Positions 1,982-58,641 of a DNA stretch of 64,000 bases are shown piece by piece. A model generated the notes under the pieces. The model did no database searches, was not told the origin of the DNA, and saw nothing but the letters and a program-made list of their open reading frames with translations. The position numbers were made by a program, and so were the translations under genes. How positions within the stretch are numbered: the stretch's first letter is position 1; the number at the start of each line of letters is the position of its first letter. Origin of the DNA: a virus; IMG/VR virus record IMGVR_UViG_3300020057_001229, positions 1 to 64,000 of that record. The stretch is one strand, 5' to 3'.

Positions 1982-3136
1982 TTCCTTCTGAAAGAAGCCC
2001 CCGTCCTCCGAGGGCGGGGATGAATTTCAGTTAGTTAAAACCTGAAATCAGTGTAATATAGTTCCATGTTTCTAACCTACAACTTCAGAGTCAAAGACGC
2101 TTCTACCAAGAACCTTCTGAAGAGAATGGCTTCTGACACAAACTTCGTTTGGAACTTTTCAAACAACATAGTCAAAGACAACTGGCAGAAATCTAGAAAA
2201 TATACCTCTAAGTATGATTTGAACCCTCTCTTAAAGGGAAGTTCTAAATACCTTAATATAAACTCGCAGACAATCCAAGCTGTAGCTCATGAATGTGTTT
2301 TGAGGACACAGAAAGCAAAGAAATAAGTCAGATTCAGAACCGCAAAAAGAAACTTGGGGTGGGTTCCAATAAACGGGCAGACCTTCAAACTCCAAGGCTC
2401 AACTCTCATTTATAATAAGAAATACTTCAAACTTTGGAAATCTAGAGACCTGCCTAAAGACGCCCTTATTAAAACAGGATGCTTCTCCCAAAACTCTGAA
2501 GGAAAGTGGTTTTGTAATATAACGTTTGAAACTAAGCTTCTAGCTCGGAAAGCCCCCGAAAGGGAAGTCGCTCTAGATCTCGGTTTAAAAACCCTCTACA
2601 CAACTTCAGACGGTTTAAAGTACGAACTGAGAGTTAATAACACTAAGAAATATGCTTTAAAGCTGGCTAAAGCGCAAAGAGCTAAGAAGAAAAAACAAGT
2701 TACTAAGATCCACACCAAAATTAAGAACTCTAGAAAAGACTGGAACCACAAAGAAACCACAAAACTAGCATCGAATTACAACCTTATTTTCGTCGGAGAC
2801 GTAAGTTCTAAGGCGCTGAAGAAAACTAAGATGGCGAAGTCTGTTTCAGACGTAGCCTGGTTTCAGTTTAAAACTTTCCTGAAGTATAAAGCTATTAAGC
2901 ACTCAGGAGAGATGCATGAAATTAAAGAAAGATTTTCCACAGTAACTTGCTCGGTTTGCCTGTCGAAGACAGGTCCGAGCGGACTAAGAAACTGTGGAGT
3001 AAGAGATTGGATATGCAGCGGTTGTGGCTCTAGCCATGACAGAGATACAAACGCTGCTTCAAACATTCTCCGTTTCGGGCATGAAACGCTTAACTTAAAA
3101 GGAATCCCACGGCTAAAGCCGTGGGGAGGATGTCAA
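1982..3136 (+). mobile_element. IS200/IS605-family (tnpB-only, IS1341-type) element
   Basis: Follows TTAG; left-end hairpin CCCCGTCCT-CCG-AGGGCGGGG; right end GGAATCCCACGGCTAAAGCCGTGGGGAGGATGTCAA; removing it restores ...PGTLKA* for the flanking minus-strand ORF. Confidence 0.9.
2066..3136 (+). pseudogene. tnpB: TnpB RNA-guided nuclease interrupted by an in-frame TAA at 2324-2326
   Basis: ORFs 2066-2326 and 2354- are in the same frame; TYNFR N-terminus, ALDLGLK, CSVC/CSGC zinc ribbon, HDRDTNAA. Confidence 0.9.
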
Positions 3137-3583
3137 CGTACCTGGACGTTCAAACATCTGCTTAAGCCTAAGGCTCTCTGCCGTAATGCGGTAGAAAAGT
3201 TGATCGGCGTAGGTGCCGTAGGTGGTAGCTGCATACGCTGTGCGGAAGCCTGCGTAAGTCATGCGTTCATAAATACGGTACGCATCTTCGACCTTGAAGT
3301 AGGTCACTTCGTTAAGTGCCGTCTCCAAGTTCTCAAGGGAGAGCGTAGCCGTATCTATAGAATCACAAAGAGCCGAGTAGGTGTTTACACAACCTACCGG
3401 CGAACGGATGTCGGTGTAGTCAAGGCGAAGTGTCGTAAGCGAGCTTAAAGCTTCAGCACGACGGAACCAACGGGGATCATTCTCAACCGGAGCTTCAGGC
3501 GTAGGAGCTGAATCACTCTTCTTAGAAGAGCTACCGCAAGACACTAAAAATGTGAGACAGCACAAAGCTACAAGCCTACGCAC
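3113..3583 (-). CDS. Putative lipoprotein; C-terminus altered by the IS insertion
   Basis: Signal peptide and lipobox-like LVSC. Confidence 0.6.
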   Translation of the reverse strand: MRRLVALCCLTFLVSCGSSSKKSDSAPTPEAPVENDPRWFRRAEALSSLTTLRLDYTDIRSPVGCVNTYSALCDSIDTATLSLENLETALNEVTYFKVEDAYRIYERMTYAGFRTAYAATTYGTYADQLFYRITAESLRLKQMFERPGTLTSSPRL

Positions 3584-15728: not shown

Positions 15729-15805
15729 TGGTTGCGGGAGCGTGAGTCGAACACGCCGAGCTTTAGGTTATGAGCCTAACGAGCCTCCCTTGCTCCATTC
15801 CCGCT
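15729..15805 (-). tRNA. tRNA-Met(CAU), initiator-like
   Basis: Loop CTCATAA; unpaired 1:72 position; CCA; TTGACT-N17-TAGATT promoter directly upstream. Confidence 0.85.
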
Positions 15806-26966: not shown

Positions 26967-28106
26967 CTAAATTTGGACTCGGTGACATTGTGTTGACATT
27001 ATAGGATGTTGCTGAGCGTGAGGCTCAAGAACTTCGTTGTCGCCAGTCTCGAAAGGTGGCGTGGTCGTAGCGACCTTACACTCAAGAAGAACCCGTTCGA
27101 GGTCTTCCTCAGTTTCCAACTTGAAGAACCGATCGCCGGTTATCTTGTAGACCTTATCCCAGTCGATTTCCCGTAGCTGATACCTGCGTGGGACATCGTT
27201 TGGCACAGACATGTAGACGAATTCGGCGATGTCGAACGGCTTCTGAATGTTGGGTACAATAATACCTAGCCAGGCAAATCGTTTGATGGTTTTCAGTTTA
27301 TCAGCGTCTTTCTTTTGAACTTCCTTAAAAGCTTCCATGCCGAAAATTGGTTTGTAATGATGAATACCGTTGTACTCTAACACTATGTAGTAGTCCCCAA
27401 CCTTAATTACAGAATCGAATTCCCGCTCTCTGTTTCTATCTTTAACAGCTAGCGCCCCGACGAGCGTTGAAAGAGCGATTGTTGCTACAAGCTCTGGTCG
27501 AGTAGTGGACCTGTTGCGCTTCATATGCGAGCAAATATCATTTAGAATACCAAGCTTACAAGCGGCGCTATATTTGCCGGGACTACCTTCTTTGAAGGCT
27601 AATCTTGTCTCATATTTCAAGGCTTCAGCTTGAAGTGACTCTAAAGTGTGTTCCTTGTAACGAACAATCATATGCGAGCAAATATCAGGTATAATACCAC
27701 GCTTATGAGCGCTATAATATTCGCTGCGGCTACCTTCTTTGAAGGCTGCCATTGTCTCATATTTCAAGGCTTCAGCTTGAAGTGACTCTAAAGTGTGTAC
27801 CTTGTGCTGAGCAATCATATGCGAGCAAATATCATTTAGAATACCAAGCCTCCGAGCGGCGCTATATTCGGCGGGACTACCTCCTTGGAAGGCTGCCCTT
27901 GTCTCATATTTCAAGGCTTCAGCTTGAAGCGACTCTAAAGTGTGTTCCTTACGCTGAGCAATCATATGCGAGCAAATATCGTCTAGAATACCAAGCCTCC
28001 GAGCGGTACTATATTCGGCGGGACTACCTTTCGAGAAGCCTATCCTTGTCTCATATTTCAAGGCTTCAGCTTGAAGTGACTCTAAAGTGTGTTGTTTATT
28101 TGCCAC
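26967..28106 (-). CDS. Tandem-repeat protein with C-terminal PD-(D/E)xK/Vsr-like nuclease domain (putative homing endonuclease)
   Basis: Four 49-aa repeats, then EFD...LEYNGIHHY...QKKDADK. Confidence 0.7.
   Translation of the reverse strand: MANKQHTLESLQAEALKYETRIGFSKGSPAEYSTARRLGILDDICSHMIAQRKEHTLESLQAEALKYETRAAFQGGSPAEYSAARRLGILNDICSHMIAQHKVHTLESLQAEALKYETMAAFKEGSRSEYYSAHKRGIIPDICSHMIVRYKEHTLESLQAEALKYETRLAFKEGSPGKYSAACKLGILNDICSHMKRNRSTTRPELVATIALSTLVGALAVKDRNREREFDSVIKVGDYYIVLEYNGIHHYKPIFGMEAFKEVQKKDADKLKTIKRFAWLGIIVPNIQKPFDIAEFVYMSVPNDVPRRYQLREIDWDKVYKITGDRFFKLETEEDLERVLLECKVATTTPPFETGDNEVLEPHAQQHPIMSTQCHRVQI
27522..28091. repeat. Four tandem 147-bp coding repeats
   Basis: CATATGCGAGCAAATATC recurs at 27522, 27669, 27816 and 27963. 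Confidence 0.92.
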
Positions 28107-35197: not shown

Positions 35198-35329
35198 GTT
35201 CGGTTCCCCCATGTAGGTCTTACAAGCACTGTAAATGCCGTTGCGTTGGTTCGAACCCAACCCTCCCGGTAACGGGGGGTAGCTCAGTTGGTAGAGCACG
35301 AAATTTAGCCCTATAACCTTGAACCGAAC
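35198..35329 (+). ncRNA. YrlA-type Y RNA (tRNA mimic), copy 1
   Basis: Terminal stem GTTCGGTTC/GAACCGAAC; T-arm, loop-closed acceptor stem and D-arm in permuted order. Confidence 0.8.
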
Positions 35330-35373
35330 TTCACCCACCGCAAGGTGGGTGTCCTCTTTCTGGAGATATTTAT

Positions 35374-43838: not shown

Positions 43839-45329
43839 ATGCTGAAGGCAGTGCTGCGCATAGGAGGTGGTTTAGTCGCCGTGTTCGGTGTCGTGCTGGT
43901 GACGTACACACTTAAGAGGATAGACTCTTACCTCGCGGACACACCCCTGCTTCTAGGCATATCTTCGCTTACGCTGATCGCGTTTTTCTTCGGCTGGTGG
44001 TCCGCCGTCATCTCCGCGCTTGCTTTTATTACCCTCATTAAGCTCTACGTTTCGCCAGAAATCCACACGGTGTCTTTCAGTCTTTTTGTCGCTCAGACTG
44101 CGATCATTGCGGGGCTCATCGAGAAGCTAGGTAACGCACGCCGTAGCTGCTCAGACGAAGCTACCAAATGCCAAGAGACCGAACACGAGCTTCGAGCCGC
44201 AAAAGAGCACGCAGAAAGATCTAACCAGACTAAGGGAGAATTTCTAGCCAACATGAGCCACGAGCTTCGCACTCCTCTCGGTGTCATTCTAGGCTACAGC
44301 GAAATCATAGCGAACGACACGCCTTCAAAGGAAGAGAAGATAGAATATGCTGACGCTATTAAGCGCAATGGTGAAACGTTAGCCAGATTGATAGATGACA
44401 TACTTGACCTAAGTCTTGCAGAAGCACAAAAGATAAGTATTGAAATACTACCTACATGCCTTAAAGATCTATGTACAGTTTTAGAAAAAGAGATGACGCC
44501 TCTAGCTGTACTAAAAAATATACGATTAAAGGTACACTGCGCCGATGTTCCTAATAACATACGCACTGACCCAATTCGTCTTAGACAAATACTTAGCAAT
44601 CTAGTTAACAACGGTATTAAATTCACCCCTTACGGAGGTGAAGTAAGCGTGTATGTGGAAAAATATGAAGAGACGCTATGCTTCGTCGTTCGGGACAATG
44701 GTAAGGGAATTTCTACTGAAGAAGCTAAGAAGCTTTTCAAGCCCTTCTCACAAGCCGACAGCTCTACGACGCGGAAATATGGGGGGACAGGCTTAGGCTT
44801 AGCGCTTTCTAAAAAGCTTGCTCAAAGCCTTGGCGGGGATGTTTTTTTGCGGGAAAGCGTTCCCGGCAAAGGGAGCACATTCGTTGTTCAAATCCACTTG
44901 ACGCCGACATCCTTGCACGAGACCAAGAGCAAGCATAAACATTTTGACGGCGCTCTCGACGGTGTCCGAGTCCTTCTTGCCGACGATGCCTTCGATAACA
45001 GACTGCTTTTGAAAGCGCTTTTGAAGCCAACGGGTGCGCTGCTTCGACTAGTGGAAGACGGCGAGCAAGCGCTTCAAGCTGTGCAACAGCACGACTTTGA
45101 CGTTGTTTTCTTAGATCTTCAAATGCCTATAATGGACGGCTACGAAGCTTGCCGTGCGCTGAGAAGTCAAGGCTACACAAAACCTATCATCGCTTTGACC
45201 GCGCACGCTATGCAGGAAGAAAGAACCAAAACGAAGACTGCTGGGTTCGATGCCCATGTCACTAAGCCGGTCAACGTCGGAAACCTCGTGAGCGCAATTC
45301 GTGCCTCGCTCGACGCCAAACCGAGTTAG
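43839..45329 (+). CDS. Membrane-bound hybrid sensor histidine kinase with receiver domain
   Basis: FLANMSHELRTPL, NLVNNGIKFT, DNGKG, GGTGLGL, LADD...FLDLQMPIMDG...KP. Confidence 0.95.
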   Translation: MLKAVLRIGGGLVAVFGVVLVTYTLKRIDSYLADTPLLLGISSLTLIAFFFGWWSAVISALAFITLIKLYVSPEIHTVSFSLFVAQTAIIAGLIEKLGNARRSCSDEATKCQETEHELRAAKEHAERSNQTKGEFLANMSHELRTPLGVILGYSEIIANDTPSKEEKIEYADAIKRNGETLARLIDDILDLSLAEAQKISIEILPTCLKDLCTVLEKEMTPLAVLKNIRLKVHCADVPNNIRTDPIRLRQILSNLVNNGIKFTPYGGEVSVYVEKYEETLCFVVRDNGKGISTEEAKKLFKPFSQADSSTTRKYGGTGLGLALSKKLAQSLGGDVFLRESVPGKGSTFVVQIHLTPTSLHETKSKHKHFDGALDGVRVLLADDAFDNRLLLKALLKPTGALLRLVEDGEQALQAVQQHDFDVVFLDLQMPIMDGYEACRALRSQGYTKPIIALTAHAMQEERTKTKTAGFDAHVTKPVNVGNLVSAIRASLDAKPS

Positions 45330-47561: not shown

Positions 47562-50500
47562 ATGTCCTATTTGAAACGAGTCAACGAAGTTCTTGCTTGG
47601 GGTAACAACTGGTATTTTCACGAGCCTACTGATCCAGATGAAAAGAAGGATCAAACAGACGAGTGGACCAAGGAGCCTTTGCAGTCGATTAAACGTCCTT
47701 TAGGTAAGTACGCGAAGACGGGCAAGCTCTTCGACGAAGACGCCAACTACACTAGGTGGGACCACGACAAAAACGACAGCGAACGTAAGGCAATGATGGT
47801 CGAAGCTCCTAACTCGGCTGCCGTAGAAGAGGCTCATAAGAAAGCAGCCACTAAGTCTCGTAAGCGTAGTGACCGCTATATCGCTATCAAGAAAATCCAA
47901 GATCAGAAATTCTTGAAGGACATGGTGCTTGATAGTAGCGTCCACGAAGATCTTCGGTCTGCTGCTGCCACACGCATCAAAGACGAGAAAGACATCGAAG
48001 ATCTCTTCCTTAAGCGCGTAGAGGGTGACTCAAGCTTTCCTGTTTCGACGCTTGTAGATTTCTTAAAGAACGAAGCTTTCATCATCAAGAATTTCGACAA
48101 GATCAAGAAGGCAGATGCTCTTCTTCATGTCAACGACGAGAAGCTTTTGACTGAACTACTGCTCGCAAATGCTGACCTCAGAGAGCACTCCTCCGACGTT
48201 CGTAGAATTCTCGACAAGATCAACGACCAGAAGCTTATCTCCAAACTGGCTTTAGACACTAAGAACGGCGACGACCAACAGTACCGCGAGTTTCTCGCCG
48301 TAAAAAGCGACGACAAGAAAGCCTTAGAGCATCTCGCCGAACTAAAGATCGAGCGTGATCCAGCTCGCCACTACTACCACAGTGAGCCAGTTAACCATGC
48401 TGCGTCAGTAGCCTTGTTTAAGCTCAAAGACAAGAATCTCGCCAAGAAAGCCTTAGACGACTCTAACACTACCTACTTAGAAAAGCAGGTAGCGCTCTCC
48501 GTTCTTGAAGATGAAAACGAGTTCAAGAAAGTTGTCACTGACGCTGTCAAAGACGCCAGAAGGAAAAAAGCTGCCCGCGATAACGACAGCGGCAATGACG
48601 AAGACGAAAACATCGACGATGCAGGAATCGAATTTGACGATGAAGACAACTTAGACATGCCTTCGTTCAAAACAGGTTATAACCACTACAGAGGTGGTGA
48701 GCGTAACGAGCTTGTCAATTTTGCTTTGAGCAACATTAAAGACCAAGACTTCCTCAAGAAGGTTCTCCCTACGAGCCCTGACTTTTGGGATCTGGTTAAA
48801 GACCAAAAGTGGAAAGAAGAAATTTTCAAGACGAAAAAGGCAGAAGACGGCTCAGCGCCTGTCGAATATTTGAGCAAAGTAGGCGACGAAAAATTCATCA
48901 TGAAAGAGATTATCGACGCTCTAAAACGTGGCTCTAGCCGTTGGATTATCGACGCCATCAAAGAAGTCCACGATCAACCCTTCTTGAAAATCCTCTATGG
49001 GAAAATGGATCCTAAGAAAGAAGGCAGCTCCCTTCGTAAGGTCATCGTCGAAAACATCACAGACTCTGAATTTCTACTCAAGATCTACAAAAGCGACAAG
49101 TCTACTGACGTTCGGGAAGCTGCCTTCAAGCACTTAGAAGATCCAGAAGCACTCTTCAAAATGTTGATGAAAGAGCGCAGCAAGAGTAACCGCCACACAC
49201 TCATTTGGAAGCTTAGAAAGAACCCTGAGTGGATTGCCAAATATCTAGCTGAAGACTTCGACGACTCAGACACGCACTCTTACGGTACTGGTAAATTAGA
49301 CGCAGCTACAGCCAAAAAGATCTTGAGCGGCGATATCAAAGGTCCCCACATTAGTAGTCTTGATATGAAGAAGTTTACTGAAATTTTCAAAGACGATCAG
49401 CCAACTCTTATCAAGATGCACAACCGCAACGACCGTTTTTCTGGAAGCGCCGTAGACTACATCACCGACGAAGACTTCATTATGGAGAATGTCGGCGCAG
49501 AGAATATGGCTTGGGAAATTGTCGAGAAGCTAAAGAAGCCCGCTAACATTGCCAAGATTGCTATAGAAAATAGAGATTCTACTGTTGCAATGCGCGCGTT
49601 CCACAATCTTAAGAATCCCCCTATCGAAATTTACAACGAGATCGCCGTCAAAGCGAAAGCTGCTGACGTCCGTAAGGCAGCCGTGCCTTATGTCACCGAC
49701 GACAAAGTGCTGAAGAACATTCTACTTTTCGACAAAGATATCGGTACCGTCGTACTTCCCCACTTCAAAGGTGACCTCAAGACCTTGCAAGAAGCTCTTC
49801 TTAAGGCAAAAGATCCTGGAGTGCTCAAAGCCCTCGCAGGGCGTATCAAAGACGACGCGACGTTGAAAGCCTTCGTCCTGAAGGCAACCAACCCCGAAGT
49901 TGGAAGCCTCGCTCTCAAAAGAGTCAAGGACAAAGAATTCCTGAAAACTGTCGCTGAGAAAGGCGTTGAACCGACGTTGGTTCGAACTGCTCTTACGACG
50001 CTAGCTGAAGACGAAGGCAATAAGGCGTTTCTAAGAACGATCTACTTCGAGCGCGACTGGCAGCCGATCTTCGATAAATCGGGTTGGAGATCGCCGTTCG
50101 GTCCCGAAAACCTCAATACTTTGATCGCTCCCTTTCTTAACGCAGACGATATGAAAAGTATCGTCATGAATCCGTCACTACTCAACAACTTCCCTCCTGA
50201 AAAGTTGGATCTAGACGAGAAGATTGCTGCCGAGGCTCTGTCGCAAAAGCCAGAGATTGTTAAAGGCTATAACAACAACCAGCTTCAAGTTCTCTTCGAC
50301 TTAGCTCCAGAGAAAGCAAAAGCGTTCTTCAGTATGAGTTTAGAGAAAATGCTCTTGTACCCGAGCATTCTCTTCGTGGCTGTGCTCCATCTTGAGCCTG
50401 AAGACCTGAACGAAGAAAACATCAGCAGCGTATACGACTGTATAAAGAAGTCGCCGCTGCAAAACCGTATTCCACAAAAAATCATCGACAAGAGTTACGA

Positions 50501-50711
50501 GCTTGGTGATGAAGTGCAGAAGGCAGCTCTCGCTAACCGAGCTTCTGAAGGCGTCCTGACTCCAGAGCACAAAGACAAAATTGGACGTGAGCGCTTTAAG
50601 TACCGGTCGCCTACTAACCGTAACAAGCACAACCTTCCGACGAAGATCAAAGAGGCGGTCAAACATCCTAAAGAAGAGTTGTTGCGTCTTCTCGTTCAAC
50701 TCGCACGCTGA
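47562..50711 (+). CDS. Large HEAT-like alpha-solenoid protein
   Basis: Recurrent VR.AA..I.D..(F/L)L motif; 1049 aa. Confidence 0.8.
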   Translation: MSYLKRVNEVLAWGNNWYFHEPTDPDEKKDQTDEWTKEPLQSIKRPLGKYAKTGKLFDEDANYTRWDHDKNDSERKAMMVEAPNSAAVEEAHKKAATKSRKRSDRYIAIKKIQDQKFLKDMVLDSSVHEDLRSAAATRIKDEKDIEDLFLKRVEGDSSFPVSTLVDFLKNEAFIIKNFDKIKKADALLHVNDEKLLTELLLANADLREHSSDVRRILDKINDQKLISKLALDTKNGDDQQYREFLAVKSDDKKALEHLAELKIERDPARHYYHSEPVNHAASVALFKLKDKNLAKKALDDSNTTYLEKQVALSVLEDENEFKKVVTDAVKDARRKKAARDNDSGNDEDENIDDAGIEFDDEDNLDMPSFKTGYNHYRGGERNELVNFALSNIKDQDFLKKVLPTSPDFWDLVKDQKWKEEIFKTKKAEDGSAPVEYLSKVGDEKFIMKEIIDALKRGSSRWIIDAIKEVHDQPFLKILYGKMDPKKEGSSLRKVIVENITDSEFLLKIYKSDKSTDVREAAFKHLEDPEALFKMLMKERSKSNRHTLIWKLRKNPEWIAKYLAEDFDDSDTHSYGTGKLDAATAKKILSGDIKGPHISSLDMKKFTEIFKDDQPTLIKMHNRNDRFSGSAVDYITDEDFIMENVGAENMAWEIVEKLKKPANIAKIAIENRDSTVAMRAFHNLKNPPIEIYNEIAVKAKAADVRKAAVPYVTDDKVLKNILLFDKDIGTVVLPHFKGDLKTLQEALLKAKDPGVLKALAGRIKDDATLKAFVLKATNPEVGSLALKRVKDKEFLKTVAEKGVEPTLVRTALTTLAEDEGNKAFLRTIYFERDWQPIFDKSGWRSPFGPENLNTLIAPFLNADDMKSIVMNPSLLNNFPPEKLDLDEKIAAEALSQKPEIVKGYNNNQLQVLFDLAPEKAKAFFSMSLEKMLLYPSILFVAVLHLEPEDLNEENISSVYDCIKKSPLQNRIPQKIIDKSYELGDEVQKAALANRASEGVLTPEHKDKIGRERFKYRSPTNRNKHNLPTKIKEAVKHPKEELLRLLVQLAR

Positions 50712-50723
50712 AAAGGATCTCAA

Positions 50724-51668
50724 ATGTTTTTCACTATCACGGCTGACCCCATTAAGGTCACAGAAGTAAAGAAGGCTCCAAGCCTTCCTATCAAGCAGAT
50801 CCTCCTCGACGAGAAAGGCGATAAGGTCTTAGAGAACATCTCAGACGAAGCAGAAGTCTTTTGGGCAGACGTAAAGAAAGCCTTCCCAGCTCTCGAAGCG
50901 CAGCTCAAAGCGATCTTCGGTGGTAAAGACCGTCTCTCTGTTGGCGATCTCAAAAAGAAGATGGGGACTGTAGAAGACGACGAAGCAGCTCTCTGGCTCT
51001 CGCACGTTGACTACAACGACGCATGGCGTATTCAGCGGGAGCTTCCTGAAAACGGCGACGACGATGAAGAAGGCAACAGGGTCGAGTATAAACAGATCGC
51101 GATCCAGCTCAACATCGGACCTTCACTTGTGAAAGCTATCGACGCTGACCCCATTGCGCAAAAGTTCTTCGAGGCTTACTCAAAAATGACTGAAGGTGAT
51201 CACCTTCACCCTAACCACACCCAGTCGATTGCTTGGGCGCGTGTCTACACCTTGAAAGACAAATGGATCATCGAAGAGCTTCAAAGCGATATTTGGGGCG
51301 CTAGTCTTAAAGCTAATGAAATTCCAGACGATGCTAAAGCCTACGACATCATCAATAAGATGCCGAAAGAGGAACAGTCTGACCTCGAACGCTTCTTTCA
51401 TAAGCACTTCATGGATTGGGACAAGAAGCTCATTGCATCCGTCATCAACATGGCGCGTAAGGCAGGTGTCAAAGACATCTATATGTGGGACGAGTCGATC
51501 AAGCAGAAGGTGACACGCTCCAAAAGCAAGCTCGACAAATACTACAAGATCGTACCGCGTGACTTAGGCTTCAAGAAAGATACGCTCAACATCGCAAACA
51601 AAGATCGTCAGGTGTGGCACCGCATTGTCGCCACCTTCAAAGACAGAATTACAGCGAGTCTCAAATGA
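50724..51668 (+). CDS. Hypothetical protein, paralogue of 3871-4755
   Basis: Shared motifs throughout. Confidence 0.8.
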   Translation: MFFTITADPIKVTEVKKAPSLPIKQILLDEKGDKVLENISDEAEVFWADVKKAFPALEAQLKAIFGGKDRLSVGDLKKKMGTVEDDEAALWLSHVDYNDAWRIQRELPENGDDDEEGNRVEYKQIAIQLNIGPSLVKAIDADPIAQKFFEAYSKMTEGDHLHPNHTQSIAWARVYTLKDKWIIEELQSDIWGASLKANEIPDDAKAYDIINKMPKEEQSDLERFFHKHFMDWDKKLIASVINMARKAGVKDIYMWDESIKQKVTRSKSKLDKYYKIVPRDLGFKKDTLNIANKDRQVWHRIVATFKDRITASLK

Positions 51669-52141
51669 AAATCGTAAAAGAGAAATATCAAATTGTAGCC
51701 AAAGATTGGTCTAACGAAACATATTGGGCTTGCTTCGCTTTCGAAGACGAGATCCCCGACGACCTCCACTGCACGCACAAGTTCTTCGGTGAACAAAGCG
51801 ACGAAAGCCGGGACAAGATCTTGGAGACGATGGATTCTTACTTCGCCAAGAAACCTTACGAGACCATCCAAGCCAAGTTTGACCACGAAGAGTTCTTCGG
51901 GGCTGATAAAGACGTTCGGGTTCTTCGGCTTGAGGACGGCGCTAGCCTCGATCCGTTTCTTCTCGATCTCCGCAAGAAGCTTGACGCTTTCGCCGACGAC
52001 AGCTTCCCCGGCTACAAGCCGCACGTCACGACGGACCTCCCCGTAGTCGAGAAGCCTCTGACACGCTACTGTCTTTGTCAGGGTGACAAGATTATCAAGG
52101 AGTGGAAAGCAATGGAGAAAAAAGCAGCAGCAGCAGCTTAG
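51665..52141 (+). CDS. 2H phosphoesterase (Acb1/LigT-like)
   Basis: Two HxT motifs: LHCT and YKPHVT; KYQIVA leader; ATGA overlap at 51665. Confidence 0.8.
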   Translation: MKIVKEKYQIVAKDWSNETYWACFAFEDEIPDDLHCTHKFFGEQSDESRDKILETMDSYFAKKPYETIQAKFDHEEFFGADKDVRVLRLEDGASLDPFLLDLRKKLDAFADDSFPGYKPHVTTDLPVVEKPLTRYCLCQGDKIIKEWKAMEKKAAAAA

Positions 52142-52194
52142 GGTTGACGAGTTCTGTGAGAGCTGCTAGGATTTGGGTAATGGGAGTTCACAAA

Positions 52195-52236
52195 ATGTTC
52201 CGTTCCGTAAATAACAATAATGAAGAAACAAGCTAG
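52195..52236 (+). promoter_or_regulatory. Asn/Glu leader peptide MFRSVNNNNEETS
   Basis: GGGAG SD; promoter TTGACG-N17-TAGGAT; four tandem Asn codons. Confidence 0.88.
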
Positions 52237-52261
52237 GGTCGAAAGTCCTTTCTGGCTTACG

Positions 52262-52290
52262 ACCCGTTTGGTAACCCAAGCGGGTTTTTT
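52262..52290 (+). terminator. Attenuator terminator upstream of tRNA-Asn
   Basis: ACCCGTTTGG-TAAC-CCAAGCGGGT plus T-tract. Confidence 0.88.
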
Positions 52291-52307
52291 ATTTGTATCG
52301 AATTTAT

Positions 52308-52385
52308 TCCGGTGTGGGGGAAGTTGGTAATCCCGCCTCGCTGTTACCGAGGAGCATGTACGTTCGATCCGTACCACCGGAGCCA
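52308..52385 (+). tRNA. tRNA-Asn(GUU)
   Basis: Cloverleaf; loop CTGTTAC; G73 + CCA. Confidence 0.92.
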
Positions 52386-52633
52386 ACTTTTTTAAAGGAC
52401 ACCATGAGAACTTTGAACACGCATCCGAATTGTCCGCCGACTGTCAGCAAAAACTCTGACGGTACCTTTACTGCACACGACATCGGCGAGATGTTGGATT
52501 GGCTTGCGGGAAGTCATGGGGACAGCGGTGTCCTGAAAATGTTGGCTCCAATGAAAGCAGTTGATACAGGTCGAGTCAGTGGTGTTGAGCCTGATGTTAG
52601 CGTTAGTTTAGGAAGTTACGAAGTGTGTGTAGT

Positions 52634-53137
52634 TTAAGCAGTTTCTAGCCTTATTTCTTGGTGTATTTCACGGTGGCAGTTAGCGCAGACCATAACACAT
52701 TTGTCTAATTCTTGTTTTGTACGTTCCCAAGATCTAGTGTGTCCTCCTTGAGAGGGATTGAAATCTTTCACGTTAGGGTCGAGATGGTGAAACTCAAGGG
52801 CGCTTACGCATTTACTGTAGCCGCAACGAGCACAGGAGCCTCCTTTATATGCAATAGATAGCTGCTTTAACTCTCGTCTTCTGTTCGTTACTTTGTCTTT
52901 ACTGTTACAGTTTATCGAGCAGAAACGTGTTTGGGTTCCAGTTAGAGGTTTTTGGCATACGTGCCATGTGCAATAGTTTCCGTTAGGTAGAGGGTTGCGT
53001 TCGTTTAGTGAGCGGGTATTGTGTAAGCCAAAGGGCGAGCAAGTAAGACAAAATTTGCGGTTACACAAATTTCTTTTTTTACCGTCAATTACAGTGTTTA
53101 TTGAGAAATGTGTGTTGCACTTTAGACAAGTAGGCAT
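52634..53137 (-). CDS. Free-standing HNH endonuclease with Cys-rich N-terminus
   Basis: CARCG...ALEFHHLDP..K...KC..VCANCH. Confidence 0.88.
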   Translation of the reverse strand: MPTCLKCNTHFSINTVIDGKKRNLCNRKFCLTCSPFGLHNTRSLNERNPLPNGNYCTWHVCQKPLTGTQTRFCSINCNSKDKVTNRRRELKQLSIAYKGGSCARCGYSKCVSALEFHHLDPNVKDFNPSQGGHTRSWERTKQELDKCVMVCANCHREIHQEIRLETA

Positions 53138-53202
53138 AAGTGTTTTCCGTAGCTAAGAGTTGGGTAACCAAATGGTGTTACTTAATCTAAGCGACGGTCA
53201 TG

Positions 53203-53290
53203 GGGAGAGTAGCCTATCGGCACGAGGCAGCGGCTTGTTAAGCCGCCAGTGGACGTAAGTCCGAAGTGGGTTCGATTCCCACCTCTCCCT
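53203..53290 (+). tRNA. Atypical tRNA with GUU anticodon and long variable arm, no CCA
   Basis: GGGAGAG/CTCTCCC acceptor, GCGGC-TTGTTAA-GCCGC, TGGAC-GTAA-GTCCG arm, GTGGG-TTCGATT-CCCAC. Confidence 0.75.
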
Positions 53291-53316
53291 CTTTTTTTCT
53301 ATAAGGAATTTTCGAT

Positions 53317-53358
53317 ATGCTGTTTCGACTAGAAGAAGAACAAATTAATTCGGGCTGA
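53317..53358 (+). promoter_or_regulatory. Glu leader peptide MLFRLEEEQINSG
   Basis: AAGGA SD; GAA GAA GAA; 3' TCGGGC is complementary to the terminator 5' arm. Confidence 0.88.
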
Positions 53359-53385
53359 GAGAGTCGGTAACGACAACTCTTTTAT

Positions 53386-53412
53386 GCCCGATCTTTGGAT
53401 CGGGCTTTTTTT
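53386..53412 (+). terminator. Attenuator terminator upstream of the tRNA-Glu pair
   Basis: GCCCGATC-TTTG-GATCGGGC-TTTTTTT. Confidence 0.9.
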
Positions 53413-53416
53413 ATGT

Positions 53417-53491
53417 GGCGTGCTCGTCTAGTGGTTAGGACGCTTGGTTCTCAGCCAGGAAAGAGGGGTTCAATTCCCCTGCACGCCTCCA
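53417..53491 (+). tRNA. tRNA-Glu(CUC)
   Basis: Cloverleaf; loop TTCTCAG; CCA. Confidence 0.9.
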
Positions 53492-53496
53492 AGTTC

Positions 53497-53570
53497 GGCG
53501 CATTCGTCTATTGGTAGGATTTCAGAATTTCAATCTGAAGAAAGGGGTTCAATTCCCCTATGCGTCACCA
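53497..53570 (+). tRNA. tRNA-Glu(UUC)
   Basis: Cloverleaf; loop ATTTCAA; CCA. Confidence 0.9.
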
Positions 53571-53624
53571 CTTTACACATTAAAGATTCAGTGTCAGCCC
53601 AGCACCCGCAAGGAGCTTTGACGC

Positions 53625-54380
53625 ATGAATCGCACTCTCTCCGGTTGGTTATCTGCTCACGAAGCGATATGTCCTTCGTGGAGAGAGTTTGTGCATCACG
53701 ACCTACCCTTCGATCACTTAGCACTTAGAACCTTTGCTCACTACGGCGTCGGACAAGACCTCGGTCTAGATGCTCTCAGCTCCATGATCTGCCAAGACAT
53801 GGGTTACAAAGTAGCAGCCGAGTACAACCTAACTGAAAAAAAGGTACGAGCTTACTACCTCGAACGTCAAGACTACCCCAAGATCTTTATCAGCGAGCTT
53901 CTTTGGAGGGAGTTCACTGAAGATGTCCAAAAGGTTTTAGAACGTGTTTTGTCCCACAATGCACCTGTAAGGCTTGCGCCGTGGCTCTTCAAAGGAACTA
54001 GACCTTGGATCAACGCAAGTAAAGAGGACTACGACGCGGTAGCTAAGGAGTCTAGCTACGGCGCTTGGCTGATTGCTTGGGGTTATGTCGCCAACCACTT
54101 CGCCGTTCACCTCAGCATGGACAAGTCGATAGCTCTCTGCAAAAGTCTCAACTTGTCGATGAATGGTGACGGCAAAGTGCAAGGCTCTAAGAGTGTAGGT
54201 TTAGAACAGTGCTCCACGAAGGCGGATCAAATTGTCCACCCACTCTTCGGAGCCTATCTCGACGGCGGCTTCGTTGAGTTCGTTCAGCGTTGGCAAGACC
54301 CCCAAGATCCATTCAAGCTCTACTCCGGCTTCGTAGAGAAGTCGGCAAGCAAAGTCATGGAGTCTACGGGGGAGCGTTGA
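53625..54380 (+). CDS. DUF1338 family (2-oxoadipate dioxygenase/decarboxylase-like)
   Basis: FDHLALRTF, PKIFISEL, ESSYGAW...G..ANHF, LEQ.ST.AD, FVEF..R, A.K..EST. Confidence 0.8.
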   Translation: MNRTLSGWLSAHEAICPSWREFVHHDLPFDHLALRTFAHYGVGQDLGLDALSSMICQDMGYKVAAEYNLTEKKVRAYYLERQDYPKIFISELLWREFTEDVQKVLERVLSHNAPVRLAPWLFKGTRPWINASKEDYDAVAKESSYGAWLIAWGYVANHFAVHLSMDKSIALCKSLNLSMNGDGKVQGSKSVGLEQCSTKADQIVHPLFGAYLDGGFVEFVQRWQDPQDPFKLYSGFVEKSASKVMESTGER

Positions 54381-54508
54381 AAAAAGCTCCCGGTCGATCT
54401 CGTCACATTCCCTGTTTATCTCCTGAGTTACGGTCCAATACTCTAAAAGATCTTCGATCACAATTCCCATAAAAAAGCCCCCCTTGGTAAAGAGAGGCTT
54501 TTAGTAGT

Positions 54509-54877
54509 TTACGGCGGCAGATGTCGAGCGACATCAAAGGTCCGCCACGGACATCCGTGAGCTTTAAACCATGACACTAGCTCCGCACGCTCGCTGTCGG
54601 ACGGCTGCGTAGGAAACCTAGAAGGGGGCATCTTTTTCTCTTCGGCTTCGTGAGCAGCTTTGCGAGCAAACGCTGCGGCGTGCTCCGTCGTGTCGAGGAC
54701 GACGTTTGCCTTCGGTTCGGGACCGCTATGACATCTAGCACAGTAGGTGGTCAGAAGCTCTTGAGCCCTTGCGTCAGTAACCGCAGCAGGTGCAGGAGTG
54801 TCGTCGTGGTTAGACCCTTTGTCGTCACCACAGCCAGTCAGAAGCAGTGCAAGAGCAAGGCTTGAACGTAATAGTAT
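54509..54877 (-). CDS. Lipoprotein c-type cytochrome; ATA start or start-codon-lost pseudogene
   Basis: LLLTGC lipobox, CARCH haem motif, MPP, ERAELVSW; not in the ORF track. Confidence 0.75.
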   Translation of the reverse strand: MLLRSSLALALLLTGCGDDKGSNHDDTPAPAAVTDARAQELLTTYCARCHSGPEPKANVVLDTTEHAAAFARKAAHEAEEKKMPPSRFPTQPSDSERAELVSWFKAHGCPWRTFDVARHLPP

Positions 54878-54961
54878 GGAAATCCCCCCAATCTAAATTT
54901 ATAGACAATCGGTTGATTGTAGAGCCCAAAGGTATGGCTATCAAGCTGTCATAATGGCGGG

Positions 54962-55234
54962 TTAAAAACCGCTCACGAGGACGCCGTTATTTATGTTGAG
55001 GAAGTCGAAGAGTTCTGAGTAGGGATAATACCATTCTCTAGTCCCTTCCACTCGGTACTCTTTTAAGTGCTCGTGGTAGAAACGCTCGTCTTCGATATCA
55101 CCGTTGTCGATGCGTAAGACTAAAAGTTGCTGCGGGAGGGTAGCTGCGAGGACGGCTATGCGTTTATCAGCATCTTTACTAAAGCCGATTTTAACACGGT
55201 GAGGTGCCTCTTTTTCTTGAATCACGTAGACCAT
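54962..55234 (-). CDS. GIY-YIG / T5orf172-like protein
   Basis: VYVIQ...VKIGFS...RI..L; E..(F/Y)H; REWY. Confidence 0.8.
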   Translation of the reverse strand: MVYVIQEKEAPHRVKIGFSKDADKRIAVLAATLPQQLLVLRIDNGDIEDERFYHEHLKEYRVEGTREWYYPYSELFDFLNINNGVLVSGF

Positions 55235-55378
55235 GACTCAAGTCTATCTGGTATTGAATACCAGTACAACTGGGTTTCTTAATTGTCGTGTTCGCTATTT
55301 TGGTGCCCACACTTGTTACAGGTCTCACCTTTGACTAGAAGTCGGTAAAACCAAACACCGATACCTGCACCAACTATA

Positions 55379-55426
55379 TTGACATCCTCCCCACGGCTAA
55401 AGCAGGGGGTTTTACGCTGAGTTTCG
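55379..55426 (-). mobile_element. 48-bp IS200/IS605 mini-element (second copy)
   Basis: TTAT|CGAAACTCAGCGTAAAACCCCCTGCTTTAGCCGTGGGGAGGATGTCAA on the minus strand. Confidence 0.85.
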
Positions 55427-55531
55427 ATAAAAAAGCCGCTTAAGGCGGCTTCTTTTGTAGAGCTTCTTGCTCTCGACTATTTTGATGGGCACTCATAGCA
55501 CTCTGTTGTCGGAGCCTTCCTCGGTTTGTAC

Positions 55532-55888
55532 TTAGGGTGTTTTTCGCAACGGTTCATAGACTCTTTTTCCCATGAAGTAGCTCGGCTGCAAATCGTCGTA
55601 AAACAAGTAGGGCTTGTTGACAACGATGTCAACGTAATCTTGTAACTCTAAAGCCCTCACCACCTTCTCTGCCCACTGACTACCACCCTGCGACCAAACG
55701 ACAATTACATACTCATCAAGCTCCTTGTGATCTTTGAGAAGTGCGATGTGGTTCGTTGCTTTGAGAAATCTAGTGCCGTCTACGGTGACGATATCTCTTT
55801 CAGGAGTGTCGTCTTGGATACGGTCGTACAAGATGAGCGTGTCGTCGATATCAAAAAAAATAGTTGGCTTATCTGGTAGAACATTCAT
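55532..55888 (-). CDS. HAD-superfamily phosphatase
   Basis: FFDIDDTL, VWSQGG, KP..FYDD. Confidence 0.8.
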   Translation of the reverse strand: MNVLPDKPTIFFDIDDTLILYDRIQDDTPERDIVTVDGTRFLKATNHIALLKDHKELDEYVIVVWSQGGSQWAEKVVRALELQDYVDIVVNKPYLFYDDLQPSYFMGKRVYEPLRKTP

Positions 55889-56209
55889 ACTGGTGATTGT
55901 AGGGTAACCCCGAGGTTTTTACACCTCGCTTTTCGCCGTAGGGAACAAAAAGAACAAGCCCATCCTAGGCAAGCTGGGAACTCGGTTTAAAGTGAGGCAA
56001 TCGTGAAGAAGACAGCCAGTAAGCAAAGCACCACGAGACGTGTCAAGGACATCTATACACCCTCTACAAAATTTGCAGCCCAACCTTTAGTAAACTTGAA
56101 AGATGCTCTTGCAATTAATCTTTGCTAAATAATCCCGTATCAATACATAAGTTTTAACAATGGCTGGTAACATTCCCGCTTATGTGTAGCCCAGCTAAAG
56201 GTTTAGAAA

Positions 56210-57505
56210 ATGATCGACTTACATGCCTTAATCACTGATCAAATAGCCGAATTGAAAGGCAACCAGTTCTTTCATGGTGGTTTCATACTCGGCGTGTTGG
56301 GTGCGATAGCGGCGATCTTTAGGCAAGTTCCACATAAGATCTGGGGTCTTTTTCTCCGCTACATTCTGACGACGGTGGAGTTTACGAGTCAGGACGATTT
56401 CTATGTATGGTTCAGTCTTTGGTTGAACAAGCAAACGTTCATCAAAGACAAAAACCGTCTACGCATTCAAACCAAAGTGCATCGTGACGGCGACCACGGT
56501 CCACGCTTTGGGGGAGGAGCCGACCAACAGCGAAAGATCGACGTGATTTACACTTTAGGCAACGGCACCCACATCGTCCGCTTCGGCTCTCTGTTTATGC
56601 GTGCGACGAAAGAGAAAGAGCCGCAGACGCAGGGTTCCGCCCACGGCAATATGGCGGCACGAGACATGTTCGTACTCACCATCTTAAGCTTCCAACGCCG
56701 CAGACTAGAACGACTTATTACGTCTATCAGTGACGAGTTCCAGAAAGAGCACACCAACAAAACCACCATTTTGCACTTCAACGTAGGCTACGACGAGTGG
56801 GTGCCGTTGTCGGTGCAGTCCAAGCGGGACATTTCGTGCGTCGTCCTCAAAGAAGGTCAGATGGAAGAAATTTTAATTGACTACGAAAACTTTCAAAAGG
56901 ACAAACCGCTTTATGATTCTTTAGGCATCCCCTACCAAAGGGGTTACCTCTTGCAGGGACCGCCAGGTACAGGCAAGACGAGCTTGATCTTTGCCTTTGC
57001 GAGCTACTACGACTTAGCCGTATGTACGTTGAGCCTCAGTGACTTCGAATCTGACCGTCAGTTTCAAAAAGCGGTCATGGGTATGCCGGACAAAGCAGCA
57101 CTCGTCATCGAAGACATCGACTCGTTCTTCAAAGGTAGAGAAACCGTCTCTGAGAAGCCTGCGTTTTTATCGTTCTCAGGCTTGTTGAATGCCCTCGGCG
57201 GACTCGCCGTCAAAGAGGGTAGGGTTCTCTTCGTTACCACCAACAAGCCTGAAGACATCGACCCTGCGTTGACTAGAGCAGGTCGTCTAGATAAGAGCTT
57301 CCTATTGTCCTACGCCGATGCCTACCAAGTCCGCCGTTTGTTCCTGCAAGTCTTTCCAAATGCCGTAAGCCAAGCAGATTCATTTGCTGAGACGGTCGCC
57401 GAGATGAACCTGTCCCCGGCTAAACTTGTGGACTACCTTTTCACAAACAAAAGCAGTCTCTCGGACACACTCCGACTTACGCATAGGCTCAGCGCTGGAG
57501 GATAA
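56210..57505 (+). CDS. BCS1-like membrane AAA+ ATPase
   Basis: N-terminal TM, GIPYQRGYLLQGPPGTGKTS, IEDID, LSFSGLLNAL, DPALTRAGRLD. Confidence 0.92.
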   Translation: MIDLHALITDQIAELKGNQFFHGGFILGVLGAIAAIFRQVPHKIWGLFLRYILTTVEFTSQDDFYVWFSLWLNKQTFIKDKNRLRIQTKVHRDGDHGPRFGGGADQQRKIDVIYTLGNGTHIVRFGSLFMRATKEKEPQTQGSAHGNMAARDMFVLTILSFQRRRLERLITSISDEFQKEHTNKTTILHFNVGYDEWVPLSVQSKRDISCVVLKEGQMEEILIDYENFQKDKPLYDSLGIPYQRGYLLQGPPGTGKTSLIFAFASYYDLAVCTLSLSDFESDRQFQKAVMGMPDKAALVIEDIDSFFKGRETVSEKPAFLSFSGLLNALGGLAVKEGRVLFVTTNKPEDIDPALTRAGRLDKSFLLSYADAYQVRRLFLQVFPNAVSQADSFAETVAEMNLSPAKLVDYLFTNKSSLSDTLRLTHRLSAGG

Positions 57506-57528: not shown

Positions 57529-58641
57529 TTAAAGGGCTTCCAGAAGTCTTGAAGCATTGTCGTGACATGTTGTAGCTCGTTCGCTGCAACTACCGCTATC
57601 CGGTTCTGGGAGTCGGGGTGGTTGGTGAGGGAGTAACTTACATGGTACATAATCATGCGTGATGCCCTTGCGCTGAGCTGCGAGTAGAGCCCGCTTTCGG
57701 CGACCTCTCTCGCACTCGAAGTTCCTGTTCAACATATAGTACATTTTACGGTAGTGCTTTTCGCACATCCCCTTACAGTGCCCTAGCTCTGTACAGTTTT
57801 CAACTCTACACTCCGTCTTGTTGTGCCGTTTTACGACAACTTCCTTTCCAAGACGTTGCCGTGTGTAGTGATTCTTACACATAAGCAGAGCATGTGCAGG
57901 CTGCTTGCACTTGAAGACCGAACAGGTTTTGCCGACGTTGTAGTTGGCGATCTTTCTAAGTGGGACGCCACGGTCATCTATGAAGCCCATCTCCCACTGC
58001 TTGTAGTGGCGAACGCAGAAGCATCGTGACTTCGGTCGCATCTTACACCCACGAGCACGGCACTGCTCGTTAGCGCCGTATGTTTTACGGTTGCGTCGAA
58101 GCTCGCCGCCGTCGTTGTCGATCAAGCCGTAGCGGTGTTCTTGTTGGTAGTGTTTGTGGCACAGTCCCCGGAGGAGGTCACCACCTGCTGTACAAAGGCG
58201 ACAGGTTTTCAGTGTGTGGCTTTTACCTTCCCGCTTTTCTCCTAGATGGATCTTGCAGAGCTTCTCGTCAACGCTGCGGTATTGGCAGTTGAGGACGTAG
58301 CAGAAGGCACGACCCTTCTGCCTCGGCTGGCGTATGATTTTCCCTTCGAGGTCACAGTCACCCTTCAAGAACCAATTGTAGTGACGTTTGCAAAAGCGAC
58401 CGCCATGTATCAGCGGCTTGTATTCTTTGCAGCCCTCGATAAGACATTTTCTTTTACGCAATTCTTCGTCTAAGACGACGGCGTAAATCTCGGTGCGTAA
58501 GCCGTCTTCCGTGATGTGGTTTTCCTTGAACTTGCGGTAGTGATAGCCGCAAAACCTTTTGGCGTAGAACGCCTTACCGCAATGTTCGAAAATGCAAGTC
58601 GGCTTTCCAACAGCAACAACAGCCTCAACCAACATCCGCAC
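57529..58641 (-). CDS. Protein with repeated C-x4-C...C-x2-HY zinc-finger-like units
   Basis: About 7 repeats of C..C...C..H(Y). Confidence 0.7.
   Translation of the reverse strand: MRMLVEAVVAVGKPTCIFEHCGKAFYAKRFCGYHYRKFKENHITEDGLRTEIYAVVLDEELRKRKCLIEGCKEYKPLIHGGRFCKRHYNWFLKGDCDLEGKIIRQPRQKGRAFCYVLNCQYRSVDEKLCKIHLGEKREGKSHTLKTCRLCTAGGDLLRGLCHKHYQQEHRYGLIDNDGGELRRNRKTYGANEQCRARGCKMRPKSRCFCVRHYKQWEMGFIDDRGVPLRKIANYNVGKTCSVFKCKQPAHALLMCKNHYTRQRLGKEVVVKRHNKTECRVENCTELGHCKGMCEKHYRKMYYMLNRNFECERGRRKRALLAAQRKGITHDYVPCKLLPHQPPRLPEPDSGSCSERATTCHDNASRLLEAL

Follow-up and report, generated by a model that had tools for sequence, protein, structure and literature searches.

How a transfer RNA (tRNA) gene is expressed when an intrinsic terminator stands immediately ahead of it is the question raised by a short region of the viral record IMGVR_UViG_3300020057_001229. 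The window analysed here is the first 64 kb (64,000 nucleotides, nt) of this 88,687-bp record, which derives from microbial-mat metagenomes and for which CheckV gave a completeness of 32%. Between a sigma-70-like promoter and a tRNA-Asn gene, the region carries a small open reading frame (ORF) with consecutive Asn codons and a segment of RNA predicted to fold either as a terminator or as an antiterminator. The arrangement and the folding models described below suggest that a phage tRNA block is probably gated by a ribosome-mediated leader-peptide transcription attenuator. Every one of the 15 tRNA genes of the whole record lies inside the window.

Promoter and Leader Open Reading Frame

The sigma-70-like promoter (P52144, + strand, 52144-52172) consists of TTGACG at 52144-52149, a 17-nt spacer ending in TGC with an extended TG at 52164-52165, and the -10 hexamer TAGGAT at 52167-52172. 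It was the only + strand site reaching 9/12 within 50000-56000. A ribosome-binding signal, GGGAG at 52182-52186, is followed by an 8-nt spacer and by an ATG at 52195, which opens the short form of the leader ORF (MFRSVNNNNEETS, + strand, 52195-52236), of 13 codons and with the stop TAG at 52234-52236. After the ATG, the codons TTC CGT TCC GTA precede the Asn codon run AAT AAC AAT AAT (+ strand, 52210-52221) and the Glu codon pair GAA GAA (+ strand, 52222-52227), the latter read by the downstream tRNA-Glu(TTC); ACA and AGC come before TAG. A preliminary description of this DNA had named this promoter, the GGGAG Shine-Dalgarno sequence and the codon order AAT AAC AAT AAT GAA GAA, and all of them were found where it placed them.

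An in-frame ATG at 52180 gives a longer form of 18 codons (MGVHKMFRSVNNNNEETS, + strand, 52180-52236). This ATG is located 7 nt past the -10 hexamer and may be a leaderless start, in which case GGGAG would form codons 1-2 of the 18-codon form. Read by eye, two other leaders of this record, those for Ser/Thr and Leu/Pro, have an ATG 7 and 6 nt, respectively, past a -10-like hexamer. Translation of the leader may begin at the leaderless 5' AUG, at the GGGAG-led AUG or at both, and the sensing codons are identical whichever start is used.

The codon composition of the leader is unusual for this virus. The window has a single instance of AAYx4-GARx2, a pattern that none of 100 shuffles reproduced. 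The run of four asparagines (NNNN) at 52210 is the sole run of at least four Asn codons when all 88,687 bp of the record are read in six frames, and it is placed 98 nt before tRNA-Asn, one of two tRNAs with a GTT anticodon, on the same strand. When 604 short ATG ORFs (8-30 codons) were ranked by Asn plus Glu content, the 18-codon leader was second. In 30 long ORFs Asn is encoded by AAC 383 times and by the rarer AAT 124 times; the AAT share in the leader is 3/4, and the chance of three or more AAT in four codons under the long-ORF usage is about 0.05.

Terminator, Predicted Antiterminator and Predicted Helix 1:2

The intrinsic terminator (+ strand, 52261-52296) is composed of a stem-loop at 52261-52286 followed by TTTTTTATTT (T6AT3). 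Its stem has 11 pairs, six of them G-C, with a loop of 4 nt and a folding energy of -16.8 kcal/mol. The T6 run ends at 52290, which is 17 nt ahead of tRNA-Asn, in agreement with the position given in the preliminary description; the 10-bp stem reported there proved to be one pair too short. A gap of 17-21 nt between terminator and tRNA is too short for a separate promoter, which leaves transcription through the terminator as the only way to the tRNA.

The predicted antiterminator (+ strand, 52236-52265; -14.8 kcal/mol) is formed by GGGUCG at 52236-52241 with CGACCC at 52260-52265, together with an inner helix of AAGUC with GGCUU, and its 5' arm overlaps the TAG stop. The sequence ACCC is common to the antiterminator and the terminator, and folding gave mutually exclusive structures; the proposal that GGGTCG/CGACCC pairing disrupts the terminator was thus supported in silico. 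A further predicted helix, designated helix 1:2 (+ strand, 52230-52258), pairs AAGCUAG at 52230-52236, the end of the ORF including its stop codon, with CUGGCUU at 52252-52258. Helix 1:2 excludes the antiterminator and, when no ribosome is present, co-exists with the terminator (P 0.84) and appears in the minimum free energy (MFE) structure. It is predicted to supply the classical segment 1, which would make the whole a four-segment attenuator.

The 126-nt region folded better than 194 of 200 shuffles (z-score -2.12; 6/200 folded as well), with the antiterminator in its MFE structure and the terminator in its centroid. Of 1000 dinucleotide shuffles of the leader, 941 gave a less stable antiterminator, as did 981 of 1000 in which only 52228-52259 was shuffled. 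With the Rfam models the window gave 12 matches at gathering score, all of them tRNA and none of a leader or T-box family, and a search of 52100-53650 at E up to 1 gave no match on 52144-52307.

Identity of the First Gene of the Putatively Gated Block

The gene behind the terminator, at 52308-52385 on the + strand, was identified by ARAGORN as tRNA-Asn(GTT) with G73 and an encoded CCA. Its canonical cloverleaf combines an acceptor stem of 7 bp and a D-loop containing GG with the anticodon loop CUGUUAC and the T-loop UUCGAUC, and the discriminator is G. The Rfam model RF00005 missed two of the ARAGORN tRNAs even at E up to 10, this one (in three runs) and a tRNA-Met at 15729-15805. A custom covariance model was built from 38 other tRNAs, with tRNA-Asn 52308-52385 left out, and with filters off it matched the gene over its full length (47.4 bits, E 2.3e-12). 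The RF00005 misses were taken as filter losses, and 52308-52385 is a genuine tRNA-Asn. The first gene of the block is accordingly a tRNA and not a biosynthesis or synthetase gene.

Proposed Mechanism and Ribosome-Footprint Models

The sequence itself shows which elements are present and where, that their folds exclude one another and which tRNA is encoded, and from this we infer a course of events made up of leader translation, stalling, read-through and a physiological trigger. Transcription would begin at P52144 or enter from the three upstream genes, and the leader ORF would be translated as RNA polymerase advances. With quick reading of AAU AAC AAU AAU GAA GAA the ribosome would arrive at TAG and cover GGGUCG, CGACCC would then enter the terminator stem, and transcription would stop 17 nt before the tRNA. 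Were usable tRNA-Asn or tRNA-Glu(UUC) scarce, decoding would be slow and the ribosome would stay upstream; GGGUCG would pair with CGACCC, four basal pairs would be missing from the terminator, and transcription would continue into the tRNA genes. As the product would raise the supply of the sensed tRNA, the arrangement would constitute a negative feedback loop. The gated block would comprise, in order, tRNA-Asn, a 77-codon ORF, a second GUU tRNA, a Glu leader and two tRNA-Glu genes.

For the folding models the ribosome was represented as an unpaired footprint that began 16 nt ahead of the first A-site base and ended 10-14 nt past it. At equilibrium, P was 0.90 for the four basal terminator pairs when the ribosome was absent, and likewise when its A site was on one of the first two or three Asn codons. 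This value dropped to 0.36-0.43, depending on the footprint, for an A site on Asn4, Glu1 or Glu2, and the base of the terminator reached P 0.91-1.00 with the ribosome at ACA, AGC or TAG. GAA GAA was the best stalling position at equilibrium, the gate being opened solely from Asn4, Glu1 and Glu2. In sequential folding the antiterminator was the MFE structure for transcripts ending at 52266-52280 in five of six states, the exception being a ribosome at the stop codon, and its late replacement would require about 15 kcal/mol to be melted while the polymerase crosses the T-run. Under sequential folding any ribosome not near the stop codon would give read-through, so that all the Asn codons would count.

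In all the models a ribosome at the stop codon removed the antiterminator and gave the terminator. The models agree in predicting termination after quick reading to TAG and read-through after a delay at the end of the Asn/Glu run, and they differ on the first Asn codons. The attenuator proposed in the preliminary description thus gained support in silico from the exclusive folds, from the removal of the antiterminator by a ribosome at the stop codon and from the genuine tRNA-Asn.

The Remaining Genes of the Putatively Gated Block and the Nested Glu Unit

Behind tRNA-Asn, the 77-codon ORF (+ strand, 52404-52637) gave no match in the family search. It is followed on the - strand by an HNH endonuclease gene (52634-53137; Pfam HNH, E 0.0044, under the curated cut-off). 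A contig from sequencing run X5, which contains a diverged relative, joins 52601 straight to 53142 and so is without the stretch 52602-53141 that includes the HNH gene; the gene, absent from the relative, has the look of a mobile element inserted into the tRNA operon. Two further HNH-like genes were located at 26970-28106 and 57532-58641.

The second GTT-anticodon tRNA (+ strand, 53203-53291) has a long variable arm of class II shape, the discriminator T and no encoded CCA, an end that is encoded in the other 14 of the 15 tRNAs of the record. One possibility is a body of Ser, Tyr or Leu type that reads Asn codons. Next on the + strand come the nested Glu leader (MLFRLEEEQINSG, 53317-53358), upstream of the Glu terminator (53386-53405), and then the genes for tRNA-Glu(CTC) and tRNA-Glu(TTC) at 53417-53570. 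In the X5 relative the Glu terminator pair 53392/53399 is changed from T-A to G-C and the loop is rewritten; the change at 53392/53399 is compensatory and supports the sister Glu gate. A weak tRNA-like match (18.1 bits, E 0.02) was also seen elsewhere in the window, past the Leu tRNA cluster, at 35273-35341 on the + strand.

The only + strand promoter-like sites of at least 8/12 in 52100-53420 were P52144 and one at 52952, which falls within the antisense HNH gene, and no convincing + strand terminator was found between the Asn and Glu attenuators. Since the HNH gene is absent from the X5 relative, the tRNA block is contiguous there, Asn-Asn-Glu-Glu behind one consensus-like promoter. The Glu tRNAs thus seem reachable only via the Asn gate, which would give a purpose to the two GAA codons of the Asn leader. 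From these codons to the antiterminator arm the distances are 14 and 11 nt, and the GAA codons of the dedicated Glu unit precede their arm, TCGGGC, by 18-12 nt (manual count). GAG, the codon of tRNA-Glu(CTC), is in neither the Asn nor the Glu leader, and GAA is read by tRNA-Glu(TTC). Sensing of Glu by the Asn leader, put forward in the preliminary description as a way for Glu depletion to open this first gate too, would fit the geometry, the promoters and the continuity of the block, and we give it a little under an even chance.

Other Leaders of the Record

Five leaders of the record mirror the tRNA sets downstream of them, namely Ser/Thr, Arg, Leu/Pro, Asn plus Glu, and Glu. Among the 120 permutations of the five leaders, the true leader-tRNA pairing gave the highest summed cognate fraction. 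The placing of a terminator before a tRNA recurs ahead of tRNA-Glu and of the Ser/Thr tRNAs, and comparison of the Asn, Glu and Ser/Thr units revealed no visible sequence homology, which favours a design reached repeatedly over duplication, unless the units have diverged beyond recognition. Neither the Leu/Pro nor the Arg leader has a clear intrinsic terminator.

Relatives and Database Searches

In an X5 contig of 964 nt, a gene segment corresponding to 51908-52036 matches with 22 differences in 129 positions (83% identity), and 10 of the 14 differences listed are on third codon positions (manual count). The segment 52229-52316 is kept with one substitution and an inserted A behind 52251, a position that lies outside helix 1:2 and in the antiterminator's apical loop. 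A leader ORF in the relative would be expected to end at the conserved AAGCTAGGGTCG. The kept block starts exactly at segment 1, which fits a constraint on an RNA switch.

Further cases were sought in several ways, and beyond the X5 sequences no relative or additional Asn attenuator came to light. In a phage collection, megablast with 51000-55000 and blastn with 52140-52400 gave no matches, and scans of viral contigs with each of the two flanking proteins revealed no relative. An antisense 82-amino-acid (aa) ORF over the attenuator, used as query, had no homologue. A neighbouring 314-aa protein had 25 homologues, and an alignment of 21 of them led to 4 viral and 24 metagenome loci; the three whole viral records behind these loci contain 6 tRNAs. 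In viral contigs the terminator pattern had no match. The anticodon-arm pattern had two, one in a tRNA-rich phage without a preceding leader and the other at a locus without a tRNA.

As a separate observation, a tRNA-Asn at L035:294-367, on an unrelated viral contig of 150 kb that carries 33 tRNA genes within 8.3 kb, has an anticodon arm identical to that of the window, CCTCG-CTGTTAC-CGAGG, including C38. The two may share a nuclease-evading variant.

Weight of the Evidence and Alternative Explanations

Several observations weigh against an attenuator at this locus. Promoter-like sites were not more frequent than in shuffles (4 found, 4.9 ± 2.3 expected), so that the case for P52144 rests on its placement and not on its score. 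The stability of the antiterminator is modestly unusual, being matched in 59 of 1000 shuffles and in 19 of 1000 local ones. At equilibrium a ribosome stalled on the first two or three Asn codons would leave helix 1:2 and the terminator in place (P 0.90), and all four Asn codons would count only if the antiterminator were kinetically trapped. The leader codons were seen in no relative; in the 964-nt X5 contig 52037-52228 is replaced by 184 unread letters, and the kept block beyond could have arisen as a mosaic through recombination, since other X5 pieces match the window at 100% identity. The six sequencing runs listed for the record include none of RNA.

The surveys for further cases point the same way. 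A tRNA is absent from all 28 loci that surround homologues of the 314-aa neighbour, and a small ORF rich in cognate codons was found in none of the seven 300-nt stretches upstream of the 6 tRNAs mentioned above and of the first tRNA of L035. The pattern AAT-AAY3...T6...YTGTTA matched at least 113 loci in viral contigs, with a tRNA-Asn in none among the matches listed. The pattern extended to the T-loop matched 22 loci in viral contigs, three with a tRNA-Asn in place and none with both a start-codon ORF and a terminator.

Some of these figures would also suit an ordinary terminator of the upstream operon (47562-52141) beside a small ORF arisen by chance, the tRNA being expressed by leaky read-through or without regulation. 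The terminator is the first to follow the upstream stop codon, at a distance of 120 nt; promoter-like sites occur at chance frequency and the antiterminator is just marginally above shuffles. However, a canonical tRNA with so strong a stop 17 nt ahead of it, and no space for a promoter in between, would be silenced. The arrangement is moreover repeated before tRNA-Glu and before the Ser/Thr tRNAs, the NNNN run is unique and AAYx4-GARx2 is absent from the 100 shuffles, and we hold this explanation to be improbable.

Another reading retains the switch and removes its codon specificity. The hairpins would report any ribosome behind RNA polymerase, as a gauge of coupling to which the Asn and Glu codons add little. 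Attenuation of the pyrBI type is a precedent for such a codon-independent gauge, and sequential folding keeps the antiterminator whenever no ribosome is near the stop codon, even without translation. A gauge of this kind would nevertheless leave unexplained the unique NNNN before tRNA-Asn, the preference for the rarer AAT and the five matches between leaders and tRNAs, and it too is thought improbable, slightly more so.

That the leader acts through Rho-dependent polarity, through processing or stability of a precursor, or in trans as a terminated 110-nt leader RNA or its peptide is very unlikely, for although the Leu/Pro and Arg leaders, with no clear intrinsic terminator, leave it conceivable that terminators are not relied on everywhere, the Asn unit has a textbook terminator with an overlapping alternative helix, and no Rfam small RNA family matched it at gathering score.

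Comparison with Known Attenuators

The putative attenuator of the Asn unit is of classical design. The leader-peptide attenuators trpL, hisL, pheL and leuL control enterobacterial amino-acid operons. They have in common with the Asn unit a short ORF with tandem codons, an arm shared by terminator and antiterminator and, as modelled for the Asn unit, a ribosome at the stop codon that blocks the antiterminator, and a counterpart of their helix 1:2 is predicted here. Use of rarer synonymous codons, as with AAT in the Asn leader, is also a feature of the leu leader. The four gate biosynthetic enzymes, whereas the Asn unit would gate tRNA genes, in a virus and via Asn codons; because the gated genes are tRNA genes, the decoding-speed signal would feed back on the tRNA itself.

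Closer in its product is the pheM leader, which attenuates the pheST operon for phenylalanyl-tRNA synthetase. Both systems would place a translation component serving the sensed codons under leader-peptide control, the product being a synthetase in the one and a tRNA in the other. No Phe leader stands ahead of E. coli pheU and pheV, where a parallel had been supposed: each of these tRNAs directly adjoins its promoter and lacks a leader ORF.

Leaders with codons for more than one amino acid are known in thrL (Thr and Ile codons) and ilvL (Ile, Val and Leu). The Asn leader shares this property, its four Asn and two Glu codons (N4E2) mirroring two GUU and two Glu tRNAs. It differs in that the Asn unit encloses a second, Glu-only attenuator, which would make a two-gate hierarchy. 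T-box riboswitches bind uncharged tRNA directly and need no translation; sensing of tRNA status by a terminator/antiterminator switch would be common to both, but the Asn unit carries an ORF preceded by a Shine-Dalgarno sequence and opened by a start codon, and it gave no T-box match.

In the literature covered by our searches, neither leader-peptide control of tRNA genes nor an Asn leader was found in print. While the mechanism would be classical, new features would be tRNA genes as the product, the viral host, the use of Asn codons and the nested second gate.

Upstream and Neighbouring Genes

The upstream three-gene operon spans 47562-52141. Its member directly upstream of the attenuator (+ strand, 51662-52138) encodes a protein with two HxTx motifs, read by eye, and a weak match to TIGR02258, RNA 2',3'-cyclic phosphodiesterase (E 1e-5, 25.5 bits, under the 65.7-bit cut-off). 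It may be an RNA end-healing enzyme adjoining the tRNA genes. Searches for RtcB, RNA_ligase and 2_5_RNA_ligase2 in the 32%-complete record gave no matches.

Other proteins encoded on the + strand of the window include a hybrid histidine kinase/response regulator (43839-45326), a TnpB-like (OrfB_IS605/Cas12f-like) protein (2354-3445) and a BCS1-like AAA ATPase (56210-57502).

Implications for Phage tRNA Genes

The regulation of phage tRNA genes is hardly known. Their role is debated between codon compensation and escape from tRNA-targeting defences (PMC10264068, PMC11555353), and tRNA variants of T5 are described as restoring infection (PMC12409363). The phage studied here carries a tRNA-Thr(TGT), and its tRNA-Asn has C38, with UAC in the loop as compared with the UAAU described in PMC12409363. 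The gene next upstream of the attenuator bears the weak resemblance to an RNA 2',3'-cyclic phosphodiesterase given above.

Loss of host tRNA to antiphage tRNA nucleases is a possible trigger of the Asn unit, the link to defence being inferred. Under this proposal each tRNA block would stand behind a leader composed of its own codons, the outer Asn plus Glu gate around an inner Glu gate would form a hierarchical sensor that follows decoding codon by codon, the phage tRNAs would be induced only on loss of the matching host tRNAs, and the attenuators would be damage sensors of a counter-defence circuit and not only a means of tuning codon usage. We put this forward tentatively, as a possibility that is on balance rather unlikely.

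The Asn unit is compact, with one promoter, one ORF and one terminator in about 150 nt, and would form the outer of two nested gates. If the attenuator reading is true, it would offer a ready-made genetic sensor for the availability of a single tRNA species. It would also mean that a virus gauges decoding speed at specific codons and answers with the matching tRNA, making a closed loop out of a textbook mechanism.

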